Of a DNA stretch of 64,000 nt, positions 6,828 to 41,061 are shown piece after piece. A program made the translations under genes and the position numbers. Position 1 is the stretch's first letter. Each line of letters starts with the position of its first letter. This DNA comes from a virus (lineage: Duplodnaviria > Caudoviricetes), in IMG/VR virus record IMGVR_UViG_3300025575_000011, positions 1-64,000 of that record. The stretch is one strand, 5' to 3'. The notes under the pieces are model-generated. The model had not been told where the DNA came from and searched no databases. It worked only from the letters and a program-made list of their open reading frames with translations.

Positions 6828-6878
6828 AAGCCCATAAATGAAGATTTTCATTCTATTAAGCGAAAGGAAGTAAAAAAT

Positions 6879-7427
6879 GTGACTTTAGATGAGATAATTA
6901 AAGAAAAAGATTGGTGGTACATAAAAGATAAAAATTATATTCTTGACAGATATTGGTTAAATGAGTTTAAAGAACAATCATATCCTGCTTTCATTTGGTG
7001 GAATCAATATACATTTAGGACTCCTAGATTGTATTTTAGAATTGTAATCCGAGAGCATACAGAAGAAGCAATGAGCAAAGTATGTAAGTCTACTCTAGGC
7101 AAATATCTTTACAAACACAAATATACAGTAATTATTATGGGAGCTGAATCAGGAGTACCTTTGCCAATAGAAATCTGGGATGAAACTGGAAACCCTTGGA
7201 AGGGTGGCACAAATCAATACATAGATAGTTTCTATTTTGGTAGGAAGTATAAAGATTTAGAGACAGATTATATTGGAGAACAAGTAGGCACATCTTCAAC
7301 ATTAATAAAGGCATTTGATTCCTTAGATGATGCTAACGAATTTGCTGAATCGTGGAGACATAAAATTATTGAAGATCATAAAGAACAAATTGAAACAGAT
7401 AGAGAAATTATGAAACTTATTCAATAG
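6879..7427 (+). CDS. hypothetical protein
   Basis: 182-aa ORF between two junction sites. Confidence 0.65.
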   Translation: MTLDEIIKEKDWWYIKDKNYILDRYWLNEFKEQSYPAFIWWNQYTFRTPRLYFRIVIREHTEEAMSKVCKSTLGKYLYKHKYTVIIMGAESGVPLPIEIWDETGNPWKGGTNQYIDSFYFGRKYKDLETDYIGEQVGTSSTLIKAFDSLDDANEFAESWRHKIIEDHKEQIETDREIMKLIQ

Positions 7428-7463
7428 AATCAAATGAGGAATTTAAAAGGAAGGAGGGGTATT

Positions 7464-7721
7464 ATGGGTAAAATTATCAAAGCATTAGATATTACATTAA
7501 AACTAATAGGAACCGTTTTAGGTCTAGGGCTATGTATATTTGCAGGAGCAGGAATATCCTTATTAGTATTTTTGTTCTTTACATTATTGTTTATGAACAA
7601 TCAACCCACATTGGTTGTTATCCCATTTGCTATTAAGATTTGTATAACCATATTCTTTGCAGTTATGTGGGTCATAAGTTCCATTCAGTTTTTCAAAGAT
7701 AATAGTAAAAGAGTCCATTAA
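7464..7721 (+). CDS. small two-TM membrane protein
   Basis: Two hydrophobic stretches; RBS ggagggg before ATG 7464. Confidence 0.6.
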   Translation: MGKIIKALDITLKLIGTVLGLGLCIFAGAGISLLVFLFFTLLFMNNQPTLVVIPFAIKICITIFFAVMWVISSIQFFKDNSKRVH

Positions 7722-7755
7722 AATATATGTTTCCTGCCATTAAGAAAGGAGAGCA

Positions 7756-8085
7756 ATGATTAATATATTCCTCGATGATCTTAGACCAAATCCAATAGGT
7801 TTTATATTGGCAAAGAGTGATTTAGTATGCAGGAAATGGTTATTATTAAATAAATCATTTGTAAATATCTTATCACTTGACCATGATTTAGGAGAAGATG
7901 AGACTGGTTATGACTTTGTTAAATGGTTAGTAGAAACAGGGATGAGTGACCCTAGTATTTATCCTAAAGAAATATATCTTCATACTGCGAATCCAGTAGG
8001 TAGACATAATATGTTTCAATTGTTGGAGAGATATAAGCCAGATGAAGTCAAATTACATAATGGGCCAATGCCAAATAATGATTAA
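7756..8085 (+). CDS. cyclic-phosphate-processing receiver-domain protein
   Basis: IFLDDLRP...LSLDHDLG...GYDFVKWL...IYLHTANPVGR signature. Confidence 0.75.
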   Translation: MINIFLDDLRPNPIGFILAKSDLVCRKWLLLNKSFVNILSLDHDLGEDETGYDFVKWLVETGMSDPSIYPKEIYLHTANPVGRHNMFQLLERYKPDEVKLHNGPMPNND

Positions 8086-8108
8086 ATATAATATAGGAGG
8101 ATTACTGA

Positions 8109-8744
8109 ATGAGAAAATTCACCATCCTCTTCGTTGGGGCATTACTCCTAACAACTGCATACTTTAGATTTAATAGTTTATATGTACCAAAGTCTACAGC
8201 AACAGAACAAAATCAACTTAGAGAATTCCAAGAGGCTAAAAATAGGTCAGCAGAACTTCAAGCAAAAAACACCCCAACAATGATTCAAAATCAACTTGAA
8301 AAAGTAGGCAAACTTACAATCCTAGAAGGACAATATAAATACTTCAGTAAAATAACTGATAAAGGGATCTTGGATATTACTCTTAGGGAAATGACATTAG
8401 ATTTTACATATAAATTTGCTCTGTGTGCATCACTAGAAAACATAAAAGTAGTTAAGGTAGAAGGCAATACGGTTATTTTAGATGTTCCTAAAGGAAAAAT
8501 TGGTTTACAATACATAGAATTATCTCAGGAAAGCAAGATTATTGATGGCAAAAAGATGATTTTAGTATCACAATTTAGTCCTTCAGAGATTACAACAGTT
8601 ATTAATCAGAGTCAACAAAATGTTACAAATGCAATCAATACAGATAGTTCCCTATTTGATAAAGCACAAGTTAATTTAGAAAGTGAACTGAAAGGATTAA
8701 TCTTGAAGATGGGATTTGATAATGTAGTGTTTAACCAAATTTAA
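8109..8744 (+). CDS. membrane-anchored DUF4230-like protein
   Basis: N-terminal TM, then VGKLTILEG.YKY...I.VPK...IEL and AQ.NLES.LK.L...MGF..V.F. Confidence 0.55.
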   Translation: MRKFTILFVGALLLTTAYFRFNSLYVPKSTATEQNQLREFQEAKNRSAELQAKNTPTMIQNQLEKVGKLTILEGQYKYFSKITDKGILDITLREMTLDFTYKFALCASLENIKVVKVEGNTVILDVPKGKIGLQYIELSQESKIIDGKKMILVSQFSPSEITTVINQSQQNVTNAINTDSSLFDKAQVNLESELKGLILKMGFDNVVFNQI

Positions 8745-8756
8745 GGAGGGATTCAT

Positions 8757-8912
8757 ATGGCAGAAAAAGTAGAAGAAATTCGAGTCAAGACACTATTCAA
8801 TAAAAAGAAATACAGACACCTAAATAGAGAACAACAATGGGCTAGAGCGACATCAAAAGGATGGATTTTCAGTGTCATTCACGGATATTTCACAAGGACT
8901 ACAGTTATATGA
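8757..8912 (+). CDS. small hypothetical protein (51 aa)
   Basis: Strong RBS aaggagggg; ATGA overlap with the next gene. Confidence 0.5.
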   Translation: MAEKVEEIRVKTLFNKKKYRHLNREQQWARATSKGWIFSVIHGYFTRTTVI

Positions 8913-9100
8913 AAGAAATAGATATGTATGTTTACTATCCTTACATAAATAAAATGGTTGAAAAATATGAAGAAGAATTAATTGAGGGTGAAAAACTACA
9001 ACAATATCTCAACACTTTAGAGCTTTGGGAGAATAGATATAAGAAAATATCATTGACCAAAAAGAATGAACTGAGGTATGCATTACAAATATTGTATTAG
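8909..9100 (+). CDS. small hypothetical protein
   Basis: ATGA translational coupling at 8909-8912. Confidence 0.5.
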   Translation: MKEIDMYVYYPYINKMVEKYEEELIEGEKLQQYLNTLELWENRYKKISLTKKNELRYALQILY

Positions 9101-9112
9101 AAAGGAGAAATA

Positions 9113-9331
9113 ATGAAAGTAAAATGTAATTGTTGCAAGTCAATTGTAGCAATTAAGGATTTGATTTTCATAAGAGAAGAGGAATATGAAGTCCCTGTTG
9201 CAATCTATCAATGTCCTGTTTGTAAGGGAGAATTAAACGATTTACAGTCAGATATTATTGATGAATGTGAAGTTCTAGGTGGAAGAAAAGATTGTAATAA
9301 TTGTACGTGTAATAGTTGTTCGGATAGATAG
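9113..9331 (+). CDS. Cys-rich Zn-binding small protein
   Basis: CNCC...CPVC...CNNCTCNSC. Confidence 0.6.
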   Translation: MKVKCNCCKSIVAIKDLIFIREEEYEVPVAIYQCPVCKGELNDLQSDIIDECEVLGGRKDCNNCTCNSCSDR

Positions 9332-9455
9332 GGAAATGAAAGAGTAATTTCATGGGGTTTGAGTATTTGAAAATCGTAGTAAATGGAAGCATGAGCGAGT
9401 ATTAGAGAGATGTATTTTATAGTACAAACAAATATATAATAAACAGGAGGAATAT

Positions 9456-10292
9456 ATGTTAGAATTAAATAACTTTTACATTGATAACTCAGTAAACTTT
9501 ATGGAAGAAAACATTCCAGATAATTACATAGACTTAACAATTACTTCCCCTCCATATGATGATTTGAGAAATTACAATGGATTCTCATTTGACTATAAAA
9601 CAATGCTAAACGAATTATATAGAATTACTAAAGATGGTGGCACTGTAATTTGGGTAGTAGGAGATAAAACAACAAAAGGTAGTGAAACTGGTACATCATT
9701 TAAACAAGCATTATATGCAAAGGAAATAGGGTTTAACTTACACGATACCATGATTTATGGTAAAAATAATCCATTTGGTACTTGTGGTAATCCTCCTTTA
9801 AGATATTCACAAGGATTTGAATACATATTTGTTTTTACCAAGGGTAGAATAAAAACATTTAATCCTATAAAAATACCTTGCAAATATGCAGGAGATACTA
9901 TTCTATTAACCACAAGGAAAGATAGACAATCAGATGGATTACCATTTGACCATTTAAGAAGTAAAATAGACACAGTAAAAGATACAAAGATTAAATCTAA
10001 CATATGGATGTACGATACAGGTAATAATAAATCAACAAAAGATAATCTTGCGTTTAATCATCCTGCAACATTCCCAGAACAATTAGCATTAGATATGTTG
10101 CTTAGTTATTCAAATGAAGAAGATGTTGTATTAGATCCAATGTGTGGAAGTGGTACTGTTTGTAAACAATCTTATCTAAATAAGAGAGAATTTATAGGAA
10201 TTGACATGAGTGATGAGTACATAAATAATATTTGTAAACCACGATTGAATACATATGGTTGGAAAAGTGAAGATAAAATAACAATATTATAA
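9456..10292 (+). CDS. orphan DNA methyltransferase, beta class (N4-C likely)
   Basis: Catalytic TSPPY near the N-terminus; HPATFP and DPMCGSGT SAM motif near the C-terminus. Confidence 0.9.
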   Translation: MLELNNFYIDNSVNFMEENIPDNYIDLTITSPPYDDLRNYNGFSFDYKTMLNELYRITKDGGTVIWVVGDKTTKGSETGTSFKQALYAKEIGFNLHDTMIYGKNNPFGTCGNPPLRYSQGFEYIFVFTKGRIKTFNPIKIPCKYAGDTILLTTRKDRQSDGLPFDHLRSKIDTVKDTKIKSNIWMYDTGNNKSTKDNLAFNHPATFPEQLALDMLLSYSNEEDVVLDPMCGSGTVCKQSYLNKREFIGIDMSDEYINNICKPRLNTYGWKSEDKITIL

Positions 10293-10319
10293 AATATAAT
10301 TTTGAGAAGGAGTTTAACT

Positions 10320-10547
10320 ATGACTAAAAATTCAATGAAGTCAAAAGTTATTAGTCTTACTGGGAAATTACTACAGGCTAAAAGAAGTGGAAATGTAATG
10401 AAGGAACAAACAGCATATCAAAATCTGTATGAATTTTGTATTGAAAATAATATTGACTTTGACAATGCTTATATTGGTGCTGTGGAATGGATTAAACAAA
10501 ATAAGCCTATAGCAAGTGCTATGAATGGGATATTAGTTAATACATAG
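10320..10547 (+). CDS. hypothetical protein
   Basis: RBS gaagga; start moved to ATG 10320. Confidence 0.55.
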   Translation: MTKNSMKSKVISLTGKLLQAKRSGNVMKEQTAYQNLYEFCIENNIDFDNAYIGAVEWIKQNKPIASAMNGILVNT

Positions 10548-10661
10548 AAGTATAGAAGTAGCACCTTCTTCATGCTTCTATATACTCACTTATGCTACGT
10601 TTTCAAACACTAAAATACCATAAAATCATTCTTTCAATCTATAAGGAAAGGGGATAAAACA

Positions 10662-10847
10662 ATGAAAAACTTTAATATAATTCACTATAAAGAATGTCCA
10701 CAATGTAATTTCCATATTGATTCACTTTCAAAATATGCTTATGACAATAATTTATGTCCTAAATGCGGATATACAACAGGTTATGGTTCGTCAACACCAG
10801 TAATTCCTTCCGACATAAATAATCATACTGGATTATTAACTAAATAA
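10662..10847 (+). CDS. Zn-ribbon small protein
   Basis: CPQC...CPKCG. Confidence 0.6.
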   Translation: MKNFNIIHYKECPQCNFHIDSLSKYAYDNNLCPKCGYTTGYGSSTPVIPSDINNHTGLLTK

Positions 10848-11190: not shown

Positions 11191-12345
11191 ATGAATACTT
11201 TAAGTAATTTAATGCAAGAGGGAATCGAGAAAAATATTAAGGATACAACAGATACATATAAAAGTCTTACTAAATCATTAGGAAATCTTAATAATTGGAT
11301 GCAAAATCCATTAGACATCTTCAATAATTACTTTGATTTTACTCATCAAGAGCGAAAACCTTTAGAATGGTCAACAGATCATGAAGTAATCATTAAAAGT
11401 CAAGCAATGAATTTATTACATTTTCCAAATACAACTCGTGAAGTAACTGCAAAATATCCTATTCTAGTATCTCCTCCAAACGCAGGACATGACAGTAAAC
11501 TTGCTGATTTTAGTCCCACACAAAGTTTAGTAAGGACATTACATGCACAAGGTTTTGATGTTTATGTCGATGAATGGCTTAGTGCTACAGCAGAAGATTC
11601 TGAATTAGGAATTGATAGTTATGTTAATTTTACTCATAGATCAGTAGAAATGATTAAACAATTACATAATGTTGATAAAATCCATTTGTTAGGACAATGT
11701 CAAGGTGGATGGCAAGTATCAATGTATGCTTCATTGCATCCTGAAAATATATCGAGTTTAGTTGTGGCTGCTGCACCAATTAATTTTCATGCTGATTATG
11801 GAGTCATGAATATTCTTGTAGACAATATGAAGATGAAAGACTTTGAAAAACTTACTACAAAAGGTTATTTAGCAGGAGAAGATATGCTAAAGAGCTTTAA
11901 AATGCTTCAACCTAATGAACATCAGCACTTGAAATTCATTAAAGAATACATAATGGTATTAGAGAAAGATAAAAAAGCAATGGACAGAACAGAGCATTTT
12001 TCCCAATGGTATGATAATCCACAGAATTTGCCTAGACGATTCTATTTAGAAATTGTTAAAAATGTGTTTATGGATAATTGTATGAAAGAAAATACGTTTT
12101 CAATTGACGGTAGGGTAATTGATTTAAAGAATATCACATGTCCATTAGTATTAATTGGAGGAACAAAAGACCATATTACTCCTCCAGAACAGTGTTTTGG
12201 TATGTCAGAATTAGTTTCTACGCCACAAGATCAGATACATAAGTTTACAGTCAATGCAGGACATATTGGAGCTTTAATGGGTGGTAGTGTATTGAGGAAT
12301 GAGTATCCTAAGATTTGTGGTATTATGAAAAGTAGTGAAGTTTAA
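11191..12345 (+). CDS. PHA synthase (PhaC) / intracellular PHB depolymerase (PhaZ)-like alpha/beta hydrolase with Cys nucleophile
   Basis: Lipase-box variant LLGQCQGG, Asp in GGTKDHITPP, His in NAGHIG; PP.AGH.S..AD and DVY.D.W segments resemble PhaC/PhaZ-type proteins. Confidence 0.75.
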   Translation: MNTLSNLMQEGIEKNIKDTTDTYKSLTKSLGNLNNWMQNPLDIFNNYFDFTHQERKPLEWSTDHEVIIKSQAMNLLHFPNTTREVTAKYPILVSPPNAGHDSKLADFSPTQSLVRTLHAQGFDVYVDEWLSATAEDSELGIDSYVNFTHRSVEMIKQLHNVDKIHLLGQCQGGWQVSMYASLHPENISSLVVAAAPINFHADYGVMNILVDNMKMKDFEKLTTKGYLAGEDMLKSFKMLQPNEHQHLKFIKEYIMVLEKDKKAMDRTEHFSQWYDNPQNLPRRFYLEIVKNVFMDNCMKENTFSIDGRVIDLKNITCPLVLIGGTKDHITPPEQCFGMSELVSTPQDQIHKFTVNAGHIGALMGGSVLRNEYPKICGIMKSSEV

Positions 12346-12757: not shown

Positions 12758-14044
12758 ATGGAAAAAGTATTGTCAATCGTAGAACAAATCCAAGCAACAT
12801 CTGGAAGGAACGATAAGGAGTTTATTTTATCACAACATAAGGACAATGAGTTATTCAAGACTGTAATGCACTTCATCTATAATCCATTTATCCTTACAGG
12901 AATCAGTAAAAAGAAGATCAGTAAGAAATTAAAACTTCCAGCAGAACCTTCCACATTATCAATTATTGAGGTTATGGATTATCTTAAAACATATAATTCT
13001 GGTAGAGATGAGGATGTTGCTTTAGTACAACACTTTATTCAATCACAGCCCGAAGGATTAAGAGACTTCTATACTAAGATTGTCTCCAAGGATTTAAGCA
13101 TTGGCATGACAGAAGGCACGTTAAACAAGGTATATGGAGCAGGATTCATAAAAACATTCAGCGTCATGTTAGCTAAGAAATATGAAGATCATAAGAAAAA
13201 AATTAAAGGCGATTTTGTTTTAACGGAGAAAATGGATGGGAATCGCTGTGTAGTAATTAAAGATAATGGAGTTGTAAAGTCTTTTACTAGACAAGGTAAA
13301 CAGTATGATGGACTTGAAGAAATTGAATCAGACATTGCTAACTTGCTTGAAGACAATGTTATTTTTGATGGAGAATTAATTGCAGATATGCAAGGTAGCA
13401 CGATTGAAATTTATGCGGAGACAACCAGTAAGGCAAGAAGTAAAGGAAGTAATAAAACAGGATTGGTATATCACATTTTTGATATGTTACCATTAGGGCA
13501 ATTCCAAGATGGAAAATCTAGTGCAAATTGTATTACACGCAAAAAATACTTATCTAGTGTATTTGATAATAATACATTCTCGCACTGCGTAGAAGTAAAA
13601 CCTTTGTACATAGGAAATGATTTATCAGAAGTGGAAAAATGGATGGGTTGGGCTAAAGACAACGAACTCGAAGGAATAATGTTGAACTTAGACAAGCCGT
13701 ATATTTGTAAGAGAAGTGATTTCATTTTGAAAGTTAAAACCTTTAATGATGCAGATGTAAAATGCTTAGGCGTTTTAGAAGGAACTGGCAAAAATGTAGG
13801 TAAACTTGGTGCTATTACAATCCAATTCACTCATGAGAATAAGATATATGAATGTAATTGTGGTTCAGGATTCTCAGATGAGGAACGAGAAGCATACTGG
13901 AAGACACCAGAATTGATTGTAGGTAAGATTGTGACAGTAGGTTATTTTGAAGTCTCTAAGAATGCACAAGGAGATTATGGGTTGAGATTCCCAACTTGGA
14001 AAAGTATTATTAGACATGATAAAACAGAAATTAGTATGAATTAA
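12758..14044 (+). CDS. lig: ATP-dependent DNA ligase
   Basis: Adenylation motif TEKMDGNR, FDGEL, YHIFD, EGIML, ILKVK, C-terminal OB fold GSGFSD...LRFP. Confidence 0.93.
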   Translation: MEKVLSIVEQIQATSGRNDKEFILSQHKDNELFKTVMHFIYNPFILTGISKKKISKKLKLPAEPSTLSIIEVMDYLKTYNSGRDEDVALVQHFIQSQPEGLRDFYTKIVSKDLSIGMTEGTLNKVYGAGFIKTFSVMLAKKYEDHKKKIKGDFVLTEKMDGNRCVVIKDNGVVKSFTRQGKQYDGLEEIESDIANLLEDNVIFDGELIADMQGSTIEIYAETTSKARSKGSNKTGLVYHIFDMLPLGQFQDGKSSANCITRKKYLSSVFDNNTFSHCVEVKPLYIGNDLSEVEKWMGWAKDNELEGIMLNLDKPYICKRSDFILKVKTFNDADVKCLGVLEGTGKNVGKLGAITIQFTHENKIYECNCGSGFSDEEREAYWKTPELIVGKIVTVGYFEVSKNAQGDYGLRFPTWKSIIRHDKTEISMN

Positions 14045-15969
14045 AAGGACTATTTCGAAGGAAAGGAGTTAAATTATAATGACCAAATATGGTATAAAGT
14101 CATATTCTTTATCAATAGGTGGCGAAGAGTTTGGAGGGATAATGTACCCAATTGATACGATAATAAGAGCATTACAAAAGTATGAAAAAGAATATGATGG
14201 TCTTGTTGGCTCTTTAAGCGGTGAAACTACAGTTAAGAAAATTGTAGAAGAAATGATAAGGGATAAGTAAAACATGAAAGATATATTTCATTCCGAAAGG
14301 AGGAATACATAAAATGATTGAAACCATTATTTGTGGATTGTTAGCTGGAATACTTACATCAATAATTCAATTAAATATAGAATTTGCTAAGTACGTATTA
14401 TCTAAAAAATAATATATAAACTATATAAAGAGGAGGATATACCATTGAATATTAGTAAGAGAGATAAATCAATAATGAAAATGTTAGCAAAACTATCAAC
14501 GTACAAAATACCTTTCATAAGTAAAGTATGCAAAGATGTTTTATTAAAGAAAATTGAGGCAGAAGTAGATAAAGCAATACAGATAGAGTATGAAAATACT
14601 CGCTCATTCTTACAGGAATTTGCAGAAGCAAAAACATTCGATGAACCAAGTTTTATTAAGTTCAAATTGAAAAATACAATCAAATAGAAGAAATTTTGAG
14701 TAGGATAAAACATGTCATTTAATTGATTATAAGAAAGGATTATTTGTATGGAAAAGAAAAAGATTAAAGTAAGTGTAAGACATCAAGTCCTCGATGTTAA
14801 TAGAGATAGAGGTTGGATACTAAGGGAGTTAGATAAATATCCAAAATATGATCCTAAAAAAGATCCTGCTATTAAAAGACTAAATGAGAGATTTGCTGAG
14901 ATTGAACACGAATATAGTAATAGAGGGTGTTTGGGTACAGTCATCTTTGCTATTATGGTTGCAGTAGGTCTACCATCGTTATATTTGTTAATGAGTTGAG
15001 ATATATAGAAAGGAGAAACAATGTACGAGTTTTACAAGATTAAGTATCCTTATGATAACCTATTCAGTACGGGATTAAGAAATGGATATATACAAAAATC
15101 TAAGAAGGGTAAAACATTCAACTCCATTGGTGCATTAAAAAGCCATTTAACAATGACGAAAAAATTTGATAATGGCGCATTTGAGTTATTTTATAATGAG
15201 TGGTTGGTTATCAAGATCACAGAGAATGGAATTGAAGAATTAGGTAAGGTAAAAGATTTCACTAGCAAATGAACATTTCCTAGTATTAAGGAAGAAAGGA
15301 GAATATTATGCAATTAACCAAACAAGCTATTGAAAAGAAATATAATTGTGAATTAATAAAAAATAATGACTGTGATGGCAAAGGTTCGTATTGGCTTGCT
15401 TATCGAGACGATGAAGGTTATATAGCAGATGAATTTACTCTTAAAGAAATGGTTAATACCCTTGAAAAATTGGAGGATTAAAAACTAAAATTCATCGTAT
15501 GAAGGGGAAAATAATGCGTGAGTACATAGTGGATAGCTTAGAAAATACATGTGTTAATGAAAAGAATGATCCAATTAAGGAAAGTAAAATTACTGATTTT
15601 GGTCAGAGTGTTAGATTCAAATTGGAGAATAATTAATATAATAAGGAAATCGAATAAAATTATATAATGTATAATCCCTTTATAAATGTGAAATAATAAT
15701 ACTAATCCATAAAATATAAAGGAGGTAGTATTATTATGAAGCGACTTCTAAATGGGTATGTTGAAACTTTTTATGTTCTAGGGAATAGAGCAGGTAATGG
15801 GTTTATAAATCATAGTAGTAGCAAAATTCTTATTACAGACCCTATGAAGTCTAGAAAATTTGACAGCTTAAAGGAAGCATTAGATTTTGTAGAAGGAAAC
15901 AAAAATAGCTATGAACCATTATTCCCACATCAAATTAGGATTACAGTTGAGTTAATTTAGTTTTAGGGA

Positions 15970-16010: not shown

Positions 16011-17799
16011 AATACATAGGCCGATAAAACATGCATTTCTTGGTATCGGAAAGGAGTTTGGTCATGAGAGTTGAATATTACTTTAGTGCAACTTCTGATT
16101 CAAATAGTTGGAAAGACTTTTTGACAAAAGAACAGAATGGAAGATTAGACTGTTTTTATAAAAAGATAACTGGATATGGATGGAAAGATAAATTTGGTTT
16201 TCACCCAAATGGTGAATCTATACATATCAGTGAAAATGGAGATGTGTATAAAGGAGTTTGGTTTGAAACAGATACTAGAAAGATTGCTATATTTGATGTG
16301 TTTAGCAAAAATTAATTTAGGGGGAGGTGACACTGTGGAATTTACTTCAATTAAAAATAAGAAAGCTAATATTAATTGTTGCCATCAATACTTACATAGG
16401 CCATTAAATATGAGTAAGTCTATCATTGAAGTAGGTAAGCCGTTGAGTATATTATACGAAATTGGTTCGTCTTTTGGTCATGAGATGGTTATTGGTATTG
16501 AATATCTTAATAAAACAGCTATGAGAGTAGAGACACAAAATAAGATATGGATTATATCCTAGCAAAGAGGAGTTTTAAGCTATGTTAAAATTTTTAATGA
16601 AGAAACCTAAAGAAGAAGACCAATATAAAATTAATTATTGGCCTTATCCTGTAGGAAAACTCATACCAAGAAACAAAAATTACGTAGCAAGAGATGTTGT
16701 ATATATAGAATCACACAATTTAATAGATGGAACAATTACAAGGATAGATGTATCACATGTAAAACTAAAGGAGGATATTAAATGAGTGGATATTTTCAAT
16801 ATATAGGATTTTATTATGAACCACATGTCCAGTATTTTATGAGAAGAATTGAAGCAAGTAATCAGATAGAAGCAGAGAACAAATTTATAAAATATATTGA
16901 AGAAGAAAATGGTAGTTGTGTCTATGAAATATTTGTTAGTTTGATATCTGATTTAGATATTATCAATTGATACTAAGAAACTCATGTTTTAAGGGGAAAG
17001 GAGTGATACTAAATGATTCCGTGGGAAGAACCAATACCAGAATGTACTGAGTGTGAATATCATAAACCGCCATATGATATTTGTAGATGTTGTCATTTTG
17101 CATTTAGCGAGAATAAAACAAACTATTTTGAACAGAAAGAGGAATAAATGAAGTATTTACTAGATATAAACATTCCATATTGGCTTGGTAAGCAACTCAA
17201 TATTTTATTGTGGATTAATAGCAATGGGAAAATCAAAATTCTAAATCTTACATTTTGGTTAAATTATAGAGTGAAAGAGATACAAGGATATGAAAAAGAT
17301 TGGTTTCTAGGTAAGAGAAAAAGTTTTGTTTTACGGAAATGGGACATTAAATAATACCCATCGAAAATACAGTTTTATCCTATAAGGAGGTGTCTAAAAC
17401 AATTGAAAAATTGTGTCGTAAGAACTTATGGTAGGGGCTATTCTAGTCCTATGGAGAATTTATCAAATAAGTTAAGTGATGGATGGATTGTAAAGAGTAG
17501 TACACCAATTTTAAACAGAGATGGCAAAACAGAGTATATTGAGTATATTTTAGAAAAAGAATAACATTCCCAAGAAACATAATTTTCATGGGATAAGAAA
17601 GGAGAAATATATGAGTAATTTTGAGAAGGTAATAAATATTGGTATGAAGGCAATGGGCGTGATTTATGCGGTAGATTCTATTGTAATATTACTAGGATAT
17701 CTTACACCATCTGCATTTGGTTCAGGCGTAACCCATTTATGTATAGCTTCGTTCTGCTTAATGAGTACATATTCGAAACCAAGTAAAACCAAATAATAT

Positions 17800-17828: not shown

Positions 17829-19291
17829 ATTAATTAAGGAGGTAGGCAATACATATGAGATTGATTTGCACATGTAAGGTTTGTGGTCATGATGATGATT
17901 GGTCTGAGAGTAAAACAGAAGATTATTACTTTTGTCAAAGTTGCCACACAGAATCACACAAAGGATCTATGAAGCTAGAATTTGAGTTTTATGGGGTTAA
18001 GGTTTTTCCTGTGGACTTTGGAGATGAGGACGAGGAAGAGGAAACACAAATAAATAGGTATGTAAGTGAAACAGAGAATTGTGAAAACTGTATGTATAAT
18101 AAAGATTCTTCCCTTTGTTATGAACGTTGGGATAAAATGAGCAATCTTCCTATTAAGAAGTTTGGAGATGGTTTAATTAACTGTTGGGAGCAAGAAGACT
18201 AAACACTTAAAAGATTACTTTTATGGTACGGGAGGTGAAATATTATGATTGAATGTGGGAAGTGCCAAAAAGAAACATTGCCTTTTTACATTACTCAAGA
18301 TGGAAAGTCATTATGTGTTGAATGTGCTACAAAGCATTGTGAACTCGTACATACAAAAATGAATCGAGATATCCAAGAAATGCAAAAGAGCATGAATAAT
18401 AGTAGTAACGATTTATTTAAGTTAAAGAGACAAATGTGTAAACATGAGAATTTAATTGATACTGGATATTGTCGATGGAGTGACCGTCTAAGACTAATTT
18501 TCAAGTGTGCTGAATGTGGTAAGGAAATACTAAAGGACTAATCCCATAAGTAGTCAATTTCATCGGATAGGAGGAATTTAATTTTATGGTTCAGGTCAGA
18601 GAAGTTCTTAAAGACATCTCAGAACTATTACTTATAATTTATGACAATTATAGTCTTGACGATGAGACAGATAGTTATATTGAATCTCAATTATATGATA
18701 TTGTAAGTAACTTATAATCCAAATCAAAAATTAGTTTCATGGGAAAATATAAAAAGAAAGAGGTTCTGGTGATATGGAACAGTTTAATTTTGAAAAACAT
18801 TGGGGTAAGTTTAGGGCAGATGGATTAGCAGTAAATTGTAAAACAGAGGATTTAGCAAACGAATTTTTGAGTTTTTGCGAACAAAGGGGTTTAGAATGGA
18901 GTGGTGGAGATTCATTGTTATCTTCAAATAACAAATGGCAAGAGCACGAGTCAGAAACTTGTTATTGGGGAAGATGGGGAGTATCATATTCCAGTATTAA
19001 TTATTGCAATGAGCAAAAAGTAGGCATTATAGAATTTATAGGTTCAAACAAAGAAGTAAAATCCAATCATCCAACAACCACAACTGAAGAAACAATCAAA
19101 GTAATCTATCATCGAAGGGAAACAATCGTTCTTCTCAAATCAGAAGGCAAACATTATAGAGGTGTTTCAAAATGCAGTTCACTAGATACATATAATAAAG
19201 AAGAGGGTTTTTTATTAGCATTAGAAAGAGCAAGAGATAATCAGAAGGAAGGGAGATATTAAATGATTTGTTGGGAAAAGAGTAAAAATAA

Positions 19292-20167
19292 ATGTCAAAT
19301 CTAAACACTGAGGAAAAGAAGAAGAGAGCAGACAAACGAAGGCAAGATAAATACAATGAGGAACATAAACTAATTAATGGAATGATTTTTAAGTGGTGTA
19401 AGGTTGGACAACATTGGGTAGTAATGGATGAGGAACATTTTTATATGAATCAAAAAAATGGGGTAGACGGGTTTCATCCAGATTGTAAATATCACACAAT
19501 TGAAAAATCAAGAAAATGGGCTAAAGATAACCCAGAAAGAGAAAAAGAAATAAGACACAAAATAAATACTAACCCATCTGATAAAACAAGAGAAACCAAA
19601 CGTATAGACGCTCAAACAAGAAGAGATAATGGCAAGTATTATCAATGGTTAAAAGATAATCCTGATAAACAATCTGCGTATACTTTAAATCATAGACAGC
19701 ATGATATTACAGAAAAGGAATGGCGATTATGTAAAGATTACTTTGATAATAAATGTGCTTATTGTGGACTACCAGCAGAAAAACATTTTGCAAGCAGGAA
19801 TGGTAAAGAAATTATAATGGATTTACATAGAGAACATGTTGAAGATGATGGTTATAATGACCTAAGAAACTGTGTGCCATCTTGTAAGGGCTGCAATAGT
19901 GCTAAACATGATTTTATTATGGTAGATTGGTTTTCTAGACAAACATTCTATGATATAGTAAGATATAATATTATTATATTGTGGACAACCGAAGATTATG
20001 AGCAATACATTGAAGAAAAACCTCCTTATAAAATGACTAAAAAGAAAAATGATGGTTTAAAGACTTTCCATTGGGAACTTTGGACGGTCGACGAGAAGAG
20101 GAATACAGTAGAATTAATAGATATAAAAGACAAAAAGAGACAGTTAGATATTAAATTAATACTATAA
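19292..20167 (+). CDS. HNH endonuclease-domain protein
   Basis: CAYCG...LHREHV...GYNDLRNCVPSCKGCNSAK. Confidence 0.8.
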   Translation: MSNLNTEEKKKRADKRRQDKYNEEHKLINGMIFKWCKVGQHWVVMDEEHFYMNQKNGVDGFHPDCKYHTIEKSRKWAKDNPEREKEIRHKINTNPSDKTRETKRIDAQTRRDNGKYYQWLKDNPDKQSAYTLNHRQHDITEKEWRLCKDYFDNKCAYCGLPAEKHFASRNGKEIIMDLHREHVEDDGYNDLRNCVPSCKGCNSAKHDFIMVDWFSRQTFYDIVRYNIIILWTTEDYEQYIEEKPPYKMTKKKNDGLKTFHWELWTVDEKRNTVELIDIKDKKRQLDIKLIL

Positions 20168-20206
20168 AGCGATTATTTTATTCTACAAATAGAAAGGAAA
20201 TGAATT

Positions 20207-20589: not shown

Positions 20590-21087
20590 ATGATTATTCA
20601 AAAAACACAAGATTACCTAAATTATGTAAAAGAGCATAAACAAAATGTAAAACTTGCATGGAAGGAACTTCAGGAAAAATGTGAGGGCAAAGGATTTTCA
20701 TTTATTTATGATGACTGGAAGTACCATATCTTATGTTCATTAATTGAAAAGCATGATGATAGTAAATTATCTAATGAAGAATTTATTCCATACAGACAGA
20801 AATTTTATCCATGTGAAGGAGAAAACATTGACAAATCTTTGTTTGGTGTAGCGTGGGAGCATCACAAAAATAACAATCCTCATCATTGGGAACATTGGTT
20901 AAATCATGAACCTTCAACCCCTTATGATAAAAGTATGTACGCTGTTGAAATGGTTTGTGATTGGATGGCAATGGGTTATAAGTTTGGTGATACAGCAGAA
21001 TCGTTTTATTTAAATAATAAAAATAAGATTATTTTACCTGTATCTGAAGACTATATTTTTGAAATATTTAATGCGATAAAGCAATAA
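20590..21087 (+). CDS. DUF5662-like HD-type phosphohydrolase-fold phage protein
   Basis: EHK.NV...HDDSK...HHKNNNPHHWEHW...EMVCDW. Confidence 0.65.
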   Translation: MIIQKTQDYLNYVKEHKQNVKLAWKELQEKCEGKGFSFIYDDWKYHILCSLIEKHDDSKLSNEEFIPYRQKFYPCEGENIDKSLFGVAWEHHKNNNPHHWEHWLNHEPSTPYDKSMYAVEMVCDWMAMGYKFGDTAESFYLNNKNKIILPVSEDYIFEIFNAIKQ

Positions 21088-21138
21088 TTCGAAATTAAGA
21101 TTTTAAAGGATTATAATTAATATTGGGAGGGATTAACA

Positions 21139-22157: not shown

Positions 22158-22233
22158 ACCACCAAGAAATTTTGGTTTTATGGGAATATGCCTAAAATAC
22201 ATAAATAAGTAGTTTTTCATAAATCTAAGCAAT

Positions 22234-22269: not shown

Positions 22270-23131
22270 CACTTCAAGGCATATAAATAATTAGTCCATA
22301 AAACTTTCCCCATAAAAAAGAAGTTTTAAAGGATAAAAAAAATTAGGAGAGTGTAAGATGAATAAAGTTAAGTTTGACAGAAAGTTTTTAAGAGATGATT
22401 TAGAATTGCCATACAGTGCAACAGAGAATAATATTATTGACTCAAGTAGATGGAGTATTCAGCACAAAATTGTCTTTGCATACGAGGATAAGTTTTATCA
22501 AGCATATTACTCAAAAGGTGCTACTGAAATGCAAGATGAAAGTCCTTGGGAATATGAAGAAGAAGTTGAATGTATTGAGGTAGAACTAAAAGAAGTTAAA
22601 GTTATGCAGTGGGTGACCGTATAATATGAAGATTAAAGACATTGTGGGTATAAATACAAAATGTGATTGCGGTTGTGATATCCCATATTTTAAAATTGTG
22701 TTTTTTCATAAGATTGGCATTTGTTATTTTAAAGAATGTACTGGTGACTGGTGGTTAAGGTTTATGTGGAGAGGTAAAAAATTTAAAGGGTGGAGACAAT
22801 ATTCAACGGTCAGTGGTTGGAGAAATTATAACATGTCATATGGATATGAGGAGTATTTTTTCTAGAAAATAAGGTAGATTAAAAGTTCATTTTCATGGGA
22901 TTAATAAGAAAGAAGGAAGATTAAAATGAATATCAGTGATTTAACTGTTGGTGACATTGTGGATGCTTACATAAATGGTGAAGAAACACATAGGGTAATG
23001 ATCATAGAAATTGGTGAAACATTGGTTTTTGGTATTGATTCAGATAATGAAGAGTATTCCATTGAGCCAAGAAGTGAGATTGAACGAGTTATTGCTAACA
23101 TTAATGAACTGTAAATTAGATATAATATTAT

Positions 23132-33172: not shown

Positions 33173-33508
33173 AACCCAAAATAGCTTAAAATCTGGCTTT
33201 TATGGGATTGCATAAAAAGGAGAGCATAATGGATGAAAGTGGGACAACAGGAGTTTGGTTAGTTATGATTTCACTTGGAATAATCGGTATAGTTTTTCAA
33301 TTGGTCAACCTTACATAAATAATAAATATAAATGAAAGAAGGAATTATTAATGGGATTTTCTACACATAAACAACGTTTTACAGCTTTGGAGTCTAAGAA
33401 GTTGAATAGTGGATTGACTGAGGATGAACTTGTTGAATTTAATGTACTAGAAGATTCATTAATCATGGATGAAGTAATTAAATATTGCGGTAAATAAATG
33501 GAGGTGAA

Positions 33509-36952: not shown

Positions 36953-37420
36953 ATGGCATATGCAGTAGGACTTAGAGGATTTGAATTAGTATCAAAGGAT
37001 AAGAAAAAGAATGTAGTTGATGCAATTAAACCAAAAAGAGGAACAAAAACTTCAGCAGGGTATGATTTTTCAACTCCTGTAAAGTTTTCCATTCCTTCTC
37101 ATGGCAAAGCAACAATCTGGACAGATATTAAATCGTATATGCAACATGAAGAAGTCTTAACTTTACATATTAGAAGTTCAATTGCTAATAAAAAAGGATT
37201 AAGACTTGCAAACTGCACAGGTATTGTGGATTCAGACTATTTTAACAATCAAGACAATGAAGGAAATATTGGTCTTTGTTTTTATAATGATAGTAATGAT
37301 ACTGTAACAATTGAAGCAGGAGAGAGAGTAGCACAAGGTATTTTTCTTCAATTTCTTGAAGCATTTGAGGGGAATACAGAAAATACAAGAGTTAGTGGTT
37401 TTGGAAGTACAGGAGAATAA
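36953..37420 (+). CDS. dut: trimeric dUTPase
   Basis: SAGYDF, IRSS, GIVDSDY, RVAQGIF, RVSGFGSTG. Confidence 0.93.
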   Translation: MAYAVGLRGFELVSKDKKKNVVDAIKPKRGTKTSAGYDFSTPVKFSIPSHGKATIWTDIKSYMQHEEVLTLHIRSSIANKKGLRLANCTGIVDSDYFNNQDNEGNIGLCFYNDSNDTVTIEAGERVAQGIFLQFLEAFEGNTENTRVSGFGSTGE

Positions 37421-37436
37421 AGGAGTTGTAATTATC

Positions 37437-37661
37437 ATGTTACAAGTTGGGAAAGTATACACACATTATAAAAAGGGAGATAGATACACAGTTCTAGACT
37501 TTGCTAAACACTCTGAAACACAAGAGGATATGATCATTTATCAGGCTGAATATGGTAATCGTGCTATTTGGGTAAGACCATTAAATATGTGGAACGATGA
37601 GATTGCAGAAAATAAGGTAACTGATTTTGGTCAAAGTGTTAGATTTAAAGAAGAATCATAA
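37437..37661 (+). CDS. DUF1653-family protein
   Basis: YTHYKKG..Y.V...AKHSET.E..IIYQA.YG...IWVRP..MW; start ATG 37437. Confidence 0.8.
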   Translation: MLQVGKVYTHYKKGDRYTVLDFAKHSETQEDMIIYQAEYGNRAIWVRPLNMWNDEIAENKVTDFGQSVRFKEES

Positions 37662-37779
37662 ACAATATAATAAGTAAAGACACTATATATAGTTACAAAA
37701 TACATAAATAATACTACATATAGTGTCTAAAACTCAATAGAATAAAACGAAAATTTCAAAGGAATAAAGGAGAGATGAT

Positions 37780-38880
37780 ATGAAAAATACAATATTTTTG
37801 CCTAAGACTATCAAAGTAGGATATCAATCACGTACCGATACATATACAGGACAGTTAGCTTATGTCATTTATATTGACCAGAAAGGAGTTCTAAGAAAAG
37901 AAACATCTTGGAATAGTTGGCGAGATAATAAAATTGAACCACAAGATTTTTCAAATGAACCAACTTCGGGATTTGTTCTAAATAAAAAGGTTGGTGATTA
38001 TGTTTCAGATTGGAATCATAGGCAAGCATATGTAAGAGTTTATGATCCTAGAAACTTTGAGTTTGAGATTACCATTGAAAATTTACTCTATATCCTTGAG
38101 AATGCTAGTTCAATTAAAGGTAAAGGACTTGAAGGTAATTTTGTCTATGGTTGGGATGGTAAGGATTTGTTATTGATTCCAACAGAATCTCCAGATTATA
38201 AGGAAATTACCGAATATAGTGAAATAATATTCCAAAAGAAATATGTTAAAGCTAAAGAATTAATATTAGGGGCTACATACAAAACTAAATCAAATGAAGA
38301 ATGGATTTATATGGGTAGGTTTGATTACCATACCACTAAATATGACAAAGTTCTATCTAAGATACAAAGTAATTCTTGGTATTCCCCTTCATATGATAGC
38401 GTCATAGTAAATGTCAATAAGGGAAAGCATCATTTCTTTGCTAGAGAAACTATAGATTATAAGGATAATAAATATTTAAGTATCTTAACTATTAAATCAC
38501 TTGGAGAGAGGTTTATAGATACAGTATCATCTGATTGCGTAGAAAACTATGCAGAGTTATTTGAAAAACTTGAATGCAAAACCGATTATTCACCATACGA
38601 TGAAAACAAAGATGAATATATAAGGTATACATTGGAGGAATTTAATAGTTCTATAAATAAAAGCAGATGGATTCATTATTATGATAATCTAAAGAATAAA
38701 TATGAAGTATATTTTGGACGCGATGACATATTTCATTATCGGAAAATTGATGCAAATAATCATTATGGTGATGAGAAATCAGTTCAAGGAACATTAGAAG
38801 AAATATATAACTTAATTAAACCAATGTACAAAAACGAGTATTTAGAAAATAATAAATTATATAGAGAGGGGAATAAATAA
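37780..38880 (+). CDS. conserved phage hypothetical protein
   Basis: 366-aa ORF coupled to the next ORF. Confidence 0.65.
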   Translation: MKNTIFLPKTIKVGYQSRTDTYTGQLAYVIYIDQKGVLRKETSWNSWRDNKIEPQDFSNEPTSGFVLNKKVGDYVSDWNHRQAYVRVYDPRNFEFEITIENLLYILENASSIKGKGLEGNFVYGWDGKDLLLIPTESPDYKEITEYSEIIFQKKYVKAKELILGATYKTKSNEEWIYMGRFDYHTTKYDKVLSKIQSNSWYSPSYDSVIVNVNKGKHHFFARETIDYKDNKYLSILTIKSLGERFIDTVSSDCVENYAELFEKLECKTDYSPYDENKDEYIRYTLEEFNSSINKSRWIHYYDNLKNKYEVYFGRDDIFHYRKIDANNHYGDEKSVQGTLEEIYNLIKPMYKNEYLENNKLYREGNK

Positions 38881-38881
38881 T

Positions 38882-39289
38882 ATGAAAACTGAAACAAACG
38901 ATCAAAAGATTATGGAACTGAAAAAACAAATCGAGGTAAAGAAAAACAAAGTAGGAAAATCCCAAAAGTTTAGCCCAATTACTAATTGTTCAATTGAGGT
39001 TGATGGAGAGCGTTCTAATATTCAAGTATTGACAAAAGAAAAGTTAATCTCATTAATGGTAAAACTAAATTCATATTCAATTTCTGCCAAAGACTTAGAA
39101 GTAGAATATATTATCAGTGGTTACAATGTAGTGGATTGGATTCAAGATATTAAGTCAAAACTTGATTTTGTCAGTCGAAAGGAAGAAGAAAATAAACTAA
39201 AATTCATGGAATCCAAGTTACATGAATTGCTTTCTAATGAAAAGAAGGTAGAACTTGAAATTGATGAAATTGCATCGTTTTTAAAGTAA
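38882..39289 (+). CDS. coiled-coil hypothetical protein
   Basis: 135-aa ORF ending next to junction site 39296. Confidence 0.6.
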   Translation: MKTETNDQKIMELKKQIEVKKNKVGKSQKFSPITNCSIEVDGERSNIQVLTKEKLISLMVKLNSYSISAKDLEVEYIISGYNVVDWIQDIKSKLDFVSRKEEENKLKFMESKLHELLSNEKKVELEIDEIASFLK

Positions 39290-39360
39290 ATCCCCATGAA
39301 ATTGATGTTTTAACCTAGTGTAAAATTTAAGAAATTGTAAATATCAGAAAATTAGATGTT

Positions 39361-39400
39361 AAACCTCTGAAAGCGTTGGTGTGTAAGGGTTTCAGAGGTT
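39361..39400. repeat. intergenic hairpin element, copy A
   Basis: aacctctgaaa[gcgttggtgtgtaaggg]tttcagaggtt: 11-bp arms, 17-nt asymmetric core. Confidence 0.8.
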
Positions 39401-39516
39401 AGGTTGTTACATTTGCCAAAAGAGAAGGAATACAGTTATTTAGGGTAAATCATCAATAATACCATGAAATCAATCTTTTATCCTATTGGAATAAATAATA
39501 AAAAGGTGGAATATTA

Positions 39517-40482
39517 TTGTTAGAATTAAATAATATATATAATGAAGATTGTATATATGGAATGAAGAGAATTGATGCCGAATCTATTGATTTAATTATT
39601 ACAGATCCTCCATACTTAATTAATTATCAGAGTGCAATGAGGACTGATAGATTTGATAAGATTGAAGGAGATAAAGGTACTAAATCGGATTATAATTTAA
39701 TTACTAATTCGTTAAATGAACTGCATAGAGTATTAAAGGAAGGTTCGCATATTTATATGTTTTGCAGTTGGCATAATATTGATTTCTTCAAGCAAGAATT
39801 TCAAAAACATTTTGAATTAAAGAATATATTAATATGGAAGAAGAAGGGTGGGTTTATAGGCGATTTAGAAACACAATATGGTGTTGATTATGAGTTTATA
39901 TTATTTGGATTTAAAAAATGGGAATATTATGATGTAGATAAAGATTGTAATTCATACCCCTTAGTAAGAGGCTATTTTAAAAAATTACAAAAGCATATAG
40001 GTTTAAAATTAAAAGAAATAAACACACATTTAGGGCATAGAAAAGCGGAACATTGTTTTTACTGGAAAACAACGCAATGGGATATGCCGACTAAAGAAAC
40101 ATATAATGAATTAATAAGAACCTTCAACATTGATAACTGGAATGAATTCAAAGAATTTAATAGCTTGAAGGTCGAATATGATAAATTAAAATATATTTAT
40201 AATAAAAGAAAACCTTTAAATGGGAAAAGAATATCTGGCATAATTGAAACATCTAAAGTGCCCAATAAGGAATATATTCACCCTACTCAAAAACCAGAAG
40301 AGATAATTAACATACTTATAGAAAAATCAAGCATAGAAAACGACATAATTCTTGATCCCTTTATAGGTTCTGGTACGACTGCAATAGCATCAATGAACAC
40401 TAATCGTCAATACATAGGTTTTGAATTAGATAATACATATTATGATTTAGCACAAAAAAGAATAGAAGAACATATCAATTAA
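39517..40482 (+). CDS. orphan DNA methyltransferase, beta class (N6-A likely), with internal insert
   Basis: ITDPPY, HPTQKP, DPFIGSGTT; about 90-aa insertion (RGYFKKLQ...QWDMPTKETY). Confidence 0.9.
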   Translation: MLELNNIYNEDCIYGMKRIDAESIDLIITDPPYLINYQSAMRTDRFDKIEGDKGTKSDYNLITNSLNELHRVLKEGSHIYMFCSWHNIDFFKQEFQKHFELKNILIWKKKGGFIGDLETQYGVDYEFILFGFKKWEYYDVDKDCNSYPLVRGYFKKLQKHIGLKLKEINTHLGHRKAEHCFYWKTTQWDMPTKETYNELIRTFNIDNWNEFKEFNSLKVEYDKLKYIYNKRKPLNGKRISGIIETSKVPNKEYIHPTQKPEEIINILIEKSSIENDIILDPFIGSGTTAIASMNTNRQYIGFELDNTYYDLAQKRIEEHIN

Positions 40483-40576
40483 GGTAATTACATAAAATAT
40501 ATAAAATATTACCATAAAATCGAATTTTCATCGTCCTCAATAATTAAGAATCTAAAATATTAGAAAATCAGGTATT

Positions 40577-40616
40577 AAACATCTGAAACCCTTACACACC
40601 AACGGTTACAGAGGTT
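40577..40616. repeat. intergenic hairpin element, copy B (core inverted relative to copy A)
   Basis: aacatctgaaa[cccttacacaccaacgg]ttacagaggtt; core is the reverse complement of the copy A core at 16/17. Confidence 0.8.
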
Positions 40617-41061
40617 GGTTTCACCATTTATCCAAAAACACAGTAAAACAGCCATTTTTCCCTAAAATACCCTAATAGGATAAAAAACACATTTCGAAGG
40701 GTTATAAAGGAGAACTAAAATGTTTATACTAACATGCTCTAAGTGTAATAATAAAATAGAAATTGATGAAGATAAATATAGAGTTAAACCCACTGACAAT
40801 TTTAGTATTTTTATTAACTATAGCGATTATGGAGATGCAATATTTATTGAGTGTAATAATTGTTGTCAAGAAACTATAATAAAATAAAGGAGTGGAATAA
40901 ATGGATACTAAAATAAACATATGTGATACTTGCATCCACCATCCCTACGATTGTTCAGCAAAAGAAACAGATGTTAGATATGGTGATGGAATTGGTTTAG
41001 ATAATGTTTATGATTGTGCTGTTTATACTAAAGGAACTGTGGGATTTGCTCAATATTAACA

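Follow-up and report, generated by a model that had tools for sequence, protein, structure and literature searches.

The accessory genes of a virus known from a single metagenomic contig are separated from one another by copies of a 28-bp dyad, in which two inverted arms of 11 bp flank a spacer of 6 bp. The virus is IMG/VR virus record IMGVR_UViG_3300025575_000011 (Duplodnaviria; Caudoviricetes), 84,150 bp long, and the first 64 kb of it, hereafter the window, had been the subject of a preliminary description in which the sites were taken as boundaries of integron-like mobile cassettes or, alternatively, as operators or roadblocks bound by the recombinase-fold protein encoded at 2305..3321. 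From the analysis reported here we conclude that the dyads are a real, conserved family of sites at accessory-gene boundaries, apparently undescribed so far, that recurs in other large temperate phages of Firmicutes. As to their function, we tentatively favour dispersed operator, roadblock or insulator sites for a phage-encoded dimeric DNA-binding protein, a reading that is based on sequence comparison; the integron analogy is not supported.

A position weight matrix, iterated from the sites listed in the preliminary description, gave the consensus ATCCCATGAAA-N6-TTTCATGGGAT. Genome-wide, 32 matches score at least 14 bits against 1.2 in Markov simulations, and 15 score at least 20 bits against 0, an enrichment that is partly circular given that the matrix was trained on the same genome. 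Two checks are independent of this training. When the pattern TRAAA-Nx-TTTYA was counted for spacings from 3 to 10, only x=6 was enriched (13 copies vs 5.1 +/- 1.8), the rest being at background, and with the same matrix four related phage loci from metagenomes yielded 8, 4, 16 and 14 sites and three distant ones 0. The motif is kept in the relatives L001-L004, L009 and G001, so that the matrix scan of the element and its relatives, which had been proposed as a check, came out positive. The shorter pattern by which the sites had been described, ATRAAA-N6-TTTYAT, is enriched as exact matches (4 vs 0.5 expected) but not when two mismatches are allowed (102 vs 92 expected), the true element being longer. 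Its outer positions, CC and GG, are conserved within this phage clade, and the invariant part is AAA-N6-TTT. A de novo scan for exact 5-mer dyads detected the motif in phage Tsamsa but, owing to the degeneracy of the arms, not in this genome.

The window contains 27 of these sites, from 6829 to 40702, in agreement with the approximately 27 previously noticed; all of them are at gene junctions, while intergenic DNA represents about 10% of the sequence. They are located after the stop codon of one gene and ahead of the ribosome-binding site of the next, and in 22/27 the end of the site is located 15-30 nt upstream of the next start codon, long intergenic gaps included. The stop codons that had been placed within the left arm at 7719, 14042 and 20165 are indeed there. 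The spacer is fixed in length and free in sequence, as the preliminary description also stated: all 27 spacers are distinct, with 0.19 identical pairs expected by chance, and 27 distinct spacers is the expectation under free drift. Within the window the replisome block, the nrdD-dut region and the DNA beyond 41 kb are free of sites, as had been observed before; two additional copies occur outside it, between late genes, at genome positions 69964-69991 and 75046-75073. Each of these late-region dyads (L008 5964 and 11046) is followed by a conserved non-coding stretch, the two stretches sharing TGAGCTAG and ATGGAAG blocks; the one after dyad 69964 ends in a terminator-like hairpin, and similar blocks follow site 9331.

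The sites of the window, to which no strand is assigned, start with 6829..6856 (19.4 bits), which lies 1 nt past a stop codon and 22 nt from the next start, and 7713..7740 (21.8 bits), whose left arm contains the stop codon of 7434..7721 and which is 15 nt from the start. Site 9331..9358 (22.1 bits) is followed by about 100 nt of non-coding DNA, and in L003 and L004 its spacer and right arm are kept and the left arm differs; site 10615..10642 (23.5 bits) is 67 nt past a stop codon and 19 nt from a start. The left arm of 14036..14063 (14.3 bits) contains the stop codon of the ligase gene, and the homology with L002, L003 and G001 has a breakpoint at 14042-14044; the alignment with L002 ends at 14275, in site 14269..14296 (15.3 bits), which matches the pattern of the preliminary description exactly. 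Sites 14700..14727 (14.2 bits) and the weak 15259..15286 (14.4 bits) are followed by start codons after 20 and 21 nt, respectively. A patch of G001 with 91.6% identity ends at 16018, next to site 16019..16046 (20.7 bits), and an alignment with L004 ends at 16561, in site 16556..16583 (18.2 bits). Further downstream are found 16970..16997 (20.8 bits, 15 nt to the start), 17356..17383 (18.6 bits, 19 nt), the top-scoring 17567..17594 (26.3 bits), in which an L004 alignment starts at 17569, 18202..18229 (17.9 bits, 15 nt), 18541..18568 (19.5 bits, 17 nt) and 18718..18745 (17.6 bits), with another L004 alignment start at 18726. Site 20159..20186 (14.6 bits) carries in its left arm the stop codon of the HNH gene 19292..20167, and 21084..21111 (15.5 bits) is 27 nt from a start. 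Long non-coding gaps have one site past the stop codon and another before the next ribosome-binding site. The first such pair surrounds 120 nt of non-coding DNA and is formed by 22159..22186 (19.9 bits, from the intergenic listing) and 22307..22334 (22.1 bits, 23 nt to the start). The sites 22874..22901 (23.2 bits, 24 nt to the start), 33181..33208 (24.5 bits, 20 nt to the start of a 29-codon hydrophobic open reading frame (ORF)) and 37737..37764 (21.5 bits, 316 nt past the previous gene and 15 nt from the start) come next. The two remaining pairs flank the methyltransferase gene 39517..40482: 39291..39318 (21.0 bits, 1 nt past a stop codon) and 39459..39486 (25.9 bits, an exact match to the pattern) are the left and right edges of the non-coding module upstream of this gene, and 40509..40536 (22.2 bits, also an exact match) and 40675..40702 (18.7 bits, 17 nt to the start) are the edges of the second one.

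Two of these places have additional features. The two non-coding modules that flank the methyltransferase gene (39289-39517 and 40482-40720) are related to each other, measure approximately 140-170 bp, are each bounded by two dyads, and each include a strong hairpin, whose 17-nt loop core is reverse-complemented between the copies. The strongly hydrophobic 29-codon ORF directly after site 33181 (33229-33318) is downstream of a promoter and a long leader, and it could encode a small membrane toxin or a holin-like peptide.

The comparison of the arms indicates at which level the dyad is recognized. Left arms and reverse-complemented right arms share one consensus; nevertheless, the mirrored positions of individual sites are paired in 63.9% of the cells vs 66.5% in shuffles (36 sites), and double changes are fewer than in shuffles. 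The only invariant pairs are the three A-T pairs beside the spacer, the other mirrored positions pairing at chance level. Since mirrored positions do not covary, the dyad consists of two DNA half-sites and not of a hairpin; two independently degenerate half-sites are the signature expected for a symmetric protein on duplex DNA, and an RNA or cruciform hairpin was ruled out on the same grounds. About half of the sites pair a CC-type arm with an ATAG-type arm, a combination that is not statistically distinctive. The absence of covariation also bears on the idea that the dyad works in the mRNA, where a hairpin or a protein-bound operator just ahead of the ribosome-binding site would control translation or processing. 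The fixed distance to the start codon, the fact that the sites are transcribed, and the resemblance to the SAS/ESAS repeats of Cluster K mycobacteriophages (PMC3203893) are in favour of such an element; however, only three A-U pairs would be invariant in it, compensatory changes are less frequent than in shuffles, several sites are far from any start (9331, 22159, 39291 and 40509), and one dyad of phage SPbeta is placed between a terminator and the yorE promoter. We regard this explanation as extremely improbable.

The location of the dyads with respect to transcription signals was also analyzed. Strong sigma-A-like promoters (TTGACT, 17 nt, TATAAT/TATACT) are present at about 4453, 12676, 17800, 33018, 41062 and 44394, and none of them overlaps a full site or even a half-site; the dyad as a sigma-A promoter, or as an operator overlapping one, was therefore ruled out. 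No intrinsic terminator was found on the plus strand between 4 and 24 kb, and junctions of 35-60 bp are too short to hold a promoter. Given these three observations, the sites lie inside long operons and are read through. A promoter for a phage RNA polymerase was discarded as well, since none of the long ORFs of the record encodes a YonO-like DxDGD protein; the window has no match to known RNA families and no tRNA.

From these results the following mechanism may be proposed. The dyads would be duplex DNA binding sites with two inverted 11-bp half-sites around a non-specific 6-bp centre, recognized by a putative dimeric DNA-binding protein that is most likely phage-encoded. Within the long polycistronic operons of early and accessory genes they are found between one gene's stop codon and the ribosome-binding site of the gene that follows, and there they could act as gene-by-gene gates (operator, roadblock or insulator) with a logic like that of the mycobacteriophage stoperators: when a site is occupied, RNA polymerase would be stopped before the accessory module downstream of it.

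The same core is abundant in other large phages. Copies of TRAAA-N6-TTTYA were counted together with a reversed-pattern control, and an excess was observed in SPbeta (36 vs 3), in the whole genome of Tsamsa (23 vs 3), in FADO (34 vs 2), in Geobacillus E3 (42 vs 10) and in c-st (37 vs 11). SPO1 (1 vs 0), Staphylococcus phage K (5 vs 5) and Listeria phage A511 (2 vs 3) are not enriched. Tsamsa, a giant siphovirus of Bacillus anthracis that carries an MrpR-like gene, showed in the de novo scan the dyad TAAAA-N6-TTTTA 15 times in 40 kb vs 0.5 expected; 13/20 of its relaxed matches are located 13-20 nt upstream of a start codon, often just past a stop codon. In an 18.5-kb segment of SPbeta, 10/12 copies are at junctions, and five are 20-30 nt before starts (yopW, yoqD, yoqE, yoqU and yoqY). 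In Tsamsa and SPbeta the dyads are again between the stop codon and the ribosome-binding site. No description of the element was found in the texts on Tsamsa and the Tyroviruses or in the SPbeta review.

A protein that binds the dyads could be encoded in the conserved regulatory module at 903-4420 of the window, which includes three candidates, all on the plus strand. The first gene (903..2279) encodes a DndB/ParB-Srx-like (YopQ-like) protein (Pfam DndB, 34.8 bits). It has a paralogue at 58071..59438, both belonging to phrog_5732, and the pair that it forms with an MrpR-like gene recurs in Geobacillus E3 (GP147-GP146) and in SPbeta (yopQ-yopR). DndB/ParB-like genes thus adjoin the MrpR-like gene in this record, E3 and SPbeta; they were weakly detected in c-st, and were not detected in Tsamsa and FADO. 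The second gene (2305..3321) encodes the recombinase-fold protein of the MrpR/YopR/SroF family (Pfam MrpR_N_CB), and the third (3726..4151), in the same operon as the second, a helix-turn-helix protein of the Cro/CI type (Pfam HTH_26, 24.5 bits). Just upstream of the promoter of this regulator operon there is a perfect 12-6-12 palindrome (780-809), which may be the terminator of the preceding gene or a separate operator.

The product of 2305..3321 is the sole recombinase-fold gene product of the record, and matches the Phage_integrase model with 17 bits, under the cut-off. All its homologues have PF22822 and PF22823, and its family profile matches PDB 9rd5 (4e-21) and MrpR 8a0a (3e-13); its AlphaFold model has a pLDDT of 70. 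The HxxR motif is absent, the corresponding segment reading ISSLYFS, and the family alignment retains the box-I Arg and the Tyr near the C-terminus, with the beta-hairpin Lys not conserved. Catalysis by this protein is very unlikely, because HxxR is absent and the beta-hairpin Lys is not conserved; MrpR itself has been shown to be non-catalytic (PMC10516654).

It could be thought, as the preliminary description proposed in its alternative, that the dyads are the operators of this MrpR/SroF-like protein. A dimer would then occupy each site, its protomers on the two 11-bp arms, in the way in which the Xer-like ancestors of the protein bind core sites, and the accessory operons would be silenced. 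The protein is a true member of the family, whose members bind long motifs (SPBRE, 15 bp; Phi3T box, 26 bp) at many dispersed sites (PMC10516654; bioRxiv 10.1101/2025.11.27.690993). The 11-6-11 arrangement is the core-site geometry of recombinases, seen likewise in the attP of the Tyroviruses (PMC9703825), and the subfamily, with the first catalytic Arg and the Tyr retained, is nearer to true recombinases than MrpR. Supporting this idea, MrpR-like genes are present in 5/6 dyad-rich lineages and in 0/3 dyad-poor ones. Nevertheless, ChAP-seq of the SPbeta MrpR revealed 10 peaks with the SPBRE motif, on the -10 regions of promoters (PMC10516654), in a phage that has 36 dyads. That SPBRE and the dyad are the same motif was ruled out, given that the motif common to the yopV and yorE promoters, which is located on the -10 region, bears no relation to the dyad. 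In Phi3T, an overlap of a SroF box with a dyad was looked for and is not the case; the SroF boxes, to which a monomer binds, lack symmetry and are not next to dyads. In addition, c-st is enriched in dyads without a detectable MrpR_C_cat domain, and no site is found near the operon of 2305..3321 or near any promoter. These data make this explanation unlikely. Among the relatives, no clear co-variation was observed between the half-site consensus and the divergence of the MrpR-like protein. The kind of mechanism advanced in that alternative is kept here, but its named binder is weakened, because the operator of the SPbeta MrpR is a different, promoter-bound motif; the choice would be left among the proteins of the conserved yopO-R-like module as candidates.

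The relatives of the record are strongly mosaic with respect to it, which allowed us to analyze whether accessory genes are exchanged at the dyads, with the exception of L009 and L010, an identical pair that gives no information on insertions and deletions. When only the upstream gene is shared, identity spans the left arm and the spacer and breaks within or at the end of the right arm; when only the downstream gene is shared, identity begins in the left arm. The conserved arms are thus where the crossovers are found, and the spacer is inherited with one flank or with the other, giving hybrid sites. Among intergenic alignment endpoints, 13/39 are inside sites vs 5 expected (p = 8e-4), but junctions with breakpoints are 11/22 of those with a site vs 13/35 of those without (p = 0.41), so that the excess at site boundaries is seen within intergenic DNA and not per junction. 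The breakpoints foreseen by the preliminary description do concentrate at sites, but in the arms, and site-free junctions are broken about as often. The sites as boundaries of accessory modules stand in part: pairs bracket non-coding modules and the segment 12304-12536 of L002 matches window 14042-14275 exactly from site to site, but the per-junction figures show no excess. For the retention of a site with the downstream or the upstream gene, the counts are too small to show a preference (3/8 vs 5/67, and 4/17 vs 4/58). Dispersed repeats at module boundaries would double as preferred crossover points in the exchange of accessory genes between related phages, probably by homologous or microhomology recombination and not by site-specific chemistry.

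The integron analogy fails on structure, enzyme, spacer and necessity. The arm-6 bp-arm organization was correctly recognized as the core-site geometry of tyrosine recombinases, since the consensus is 11-6-11 and only the 6-bp spacing is enriched; however, all 27 spacers differ, and a canonical tyrosine recombinase could not join different sites; spacers are shared just between orthologous sites of different phages. There is no attC-like fold, because arm pairing is no better than in shuffled sequences. The protein 2305..3321 lacks HxxR, no serine recombinase was found in the record (G000) or in its 92%-complete relative G001, and the units between sites contain 0-5 genes each. The possibility was also considered that the dyads are substrates of active site-specific recombination, as integron-like boundaries, by a tyrosine recombinase whose gene would lie in the half of the genome that the record lacks. 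The core-like geometry, the site pairs that bracket modules (including those without ORFs), the module identical from site to site in L002 and the hybrid sites are consistent with it, the record is 51% complete, and the Tyroviruses have three recombinase-like genes (PMC9703825). Furthermore, G001 encodes in the genome part missing from the present record a second, nearly canonical tyrosine recombinase, P0052 (L020:14786-15880, minus strand; G001 114.8-115.9 kb), with Arg, His-x-x-Lys, His and Tyr, Lys replacing the second catalytic Arg. However, about 200 nt downstream of the P0052 gene there is a perfect 10-6-10 inverted repeat (L020 14571-14596) with arms quite unlike the dyads, which may be the core site of P0052 itself, similar to the Tyrovirus attP, 11-6-11 and also with arms unlike the dyads (PMC9703825). 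Together with the different spacers, which leave no two sites with a common overlap region, the lack of attC-like pairing, the variable content of the units, the frequent shuffling at site-free junctions and the absence of a serine recombinase, this makes active recombination at the dyads most unlikely.

A broader idea, quite unlikely as well, would join both aspects: TRAAA-N6-TTTYA would be an element conserved at the gene boundaries of a whole group of large temperate phages of Firmicutes (SPbeta-like, Tsamsa-like, E3, FADO, c-st and this clade) and the core site of a recombinase-fold or ParB-like protein that pairs orthologous, spacer-addressed junctions and thereby drives or polices the exchange of modules between co-infecting phages. 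If true, these phages would have a cassette system in common that differs from integrons as well as from PeSL.

Several observations weigh against the dispersed operator or roadblock that we favour. The replisome and late genes have no sites, though silencing in the prophage should cover them too, and the first site is 2.4 kb downstream of the promoter at 4453. A simple roadblock requires no fixed distance to the start codon, and it does not explain the pairs that bracket non-coding DNA. In SPbeta, where 36 dyads coexist with 10 SPBRE peaks, that member of the MrpR family does not occupy the dyads in lysogens. Finally, the core is identical across phages of Bacillus, Geobacillus and Clostridium, a degree of conservation that a fast-evolving phage regulator would not usually show, so that conserved machinery of the host could be involved instead.

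According to this last possibility, a phage protein would not be needed: the effect of the dyad would depend either on a factor common to Firmicutes, such as RNA polymerase or a nucleoid protein, or on the shape of the DNA, with an A-tract and a T-tract one helical turn apart. Apart from the three host genera, the invariant AAA-N6-TTT is in its favour. On the other hand, the outer CC and GG conserved in the clade are not needed for plain A-tract bending, and the enrichment is missing in virulent Firmicutes phages. ComK boxes have a 5-bp spacer, and this spacing is not enriched here; to our knowledge, no box of a known Firmicutes regulator matches the dyad. In a 4.7-Mb Clostridium metagenome-assembled genome, the contigs that hold the best matches to the extended motif are few and small, the carrier of the MrpR-like gene among them, and the motif is rare on the large, presumably chromosomal contigs. 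A phage factor rather than a host regulon is suggested, because the extended motif clusters on the MrpR-like-gene contig and other small contigs of this bin, and this distribution argues for the dyads being phage-specific. Action through the host is in our opinion distinctly unlikely.

The record that carries the dyads has a G+C content of 30% and a completeness of 51% according to CheckV, and near relatives were not found by a DNA-level search of deposited phages. It encodes a DNA polymerase, helicase, primase, exonuclease, Sak4-like annealing protein, ATP-dependent ligase, NrdD and several DNA methyltransferases, as well as tail, lysis and tape-measure proteins, the tape-measure gene being interrupted by the contig end. 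Plasmid-type genes form a maintenance block at window 45989-50244, with a DnaD/Rep-like protein (45989..46885, minus strand), ParA (48105..48980, minus strand) and a second partition protein (49342..50244). Homologues of the regulator gene 2305..3321 are on contigs of 76-202 kb and in one metagenome-assembled genome of Clostridium sp. From the size and origin of these contigs, the completeness and the plasmid genes, the record represents approximately one half of a temperate phage of Clostridia of some 150 kb, probably a phage-plasmid. Its architecture is similar to that of the Tyroviruses of Bacillus, in which plasmid genes are also found together with several recombinase-like genes (PMC9703825).

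Other genes of the record deserve mention. Four HNH or homing-endonuclease-like genes are present (window 19292-20167 and 44430-45926; genome 72413-73912 and 80181-81188), and the first of them is relocated relative to its neighbours in L004, which indicates more local rearrangement. Among the accessory genes, 11191-12345 of the window encodes an alpha/beta hydrolase with matches to DUF3141 and to a PHB-depolymerase C-terminal domain. In L009, L011, L012 and L013, a conserved block 5-10 kb upstream of the MrpR-like gene includes two PemK/MazF-like toxins, a DUF5317 protein and an AgrB-like protein, and would fall before the start of the present contig.

How large temperate phages of Firmicutes regulate and exchange their tiny accessory genes, which form long arrays, is poorly understood, and one dyad that marks many junctions of such an array provides a concrete handle on both. 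As the dyad is common to uncultivated Clostridium phage-plasmids and to the tractable SPbeta, its role can be tested directly in Bacillus subtilis. The results also correct the analogy with integrons and separate the dyads from the known operator of MrpR.

Several known systems share some features with the dyads. The stoperators of Cluster A mycobacteriophages (L5 gp71 and relatives) are more than 20 repressor sites in short intergenic spaces, for which a halt of elongation has been proposed (PMC9283540); like the dyads, they occur in many copies in short intergenic spaces within operons (PMC9283540). In contrast to the dyads, which are symmetric 28-mers never placed at promoters, each stoperator is an asymmetric 13-mer to which a monomer binds; its orientation follows transcription, and promoters carry copies of it too. 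The ESAS of Cluster K mycobacteriophages, of unknown function, are imperfect inverted repeats with a variable spacer immediately upstream of many translation starts (PMC3203893). They resemble the dyads as start-proximal inverted repeats and are conserved with the downstream gene family (PMC3203893), but they have 17-bp arms and a spacer of 4-13 bp instead of the fixed 6 bp, accompany a 13-bp start-associated sequence, and are unrelated in sequence and host phylum. The PeSL cassettes of T4-like phages are also short repeated elements flanking variable ORFs, at the boundaries of insertions, deletions and replacements in hyperplastic regions (PMC2839356, PMC4122927); however, PeSL consists of an early promoter and a stem-loop terminator, and the dyads contain neither. 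SPBRE and Phi3TRE are, like the dyads, long motifs scattered across a large temperate phage of Firmicutes with a gene for a recombinase-fold repressor of the MrpR/SroF family (PMC10516654; bioRxiv 10.1101/2025.11.27.690993). SPBRE differs in being asymmetric, placed on promoter -10 regions in about 10 copies and bound by a monomer, the 36 dyads of SPbeta constituting a separate set. With dif, loxP and the Tyrovirus attP (11-6-11) the dyads have in common two inverted arms of 11 bp and a 6-bp centre (PMC9703825); nonetheless, the core sites of tyrosine recombinases are unique or few and their partners share the spacer, whereas the dyads have 27 copies with all spacers different. The attC sites of integrons, finally, are also found at the boundaries of co-oriented genes that mostly lack their own promoter, but attC depends for its function on a single strand with a conserved fold and on a crossover triplet that is conserved as well; the dyads have neither of the two, and the sole recombinase-fold gene of the record (2305..3321) does not qualify as an active recombinase of the IntI type.

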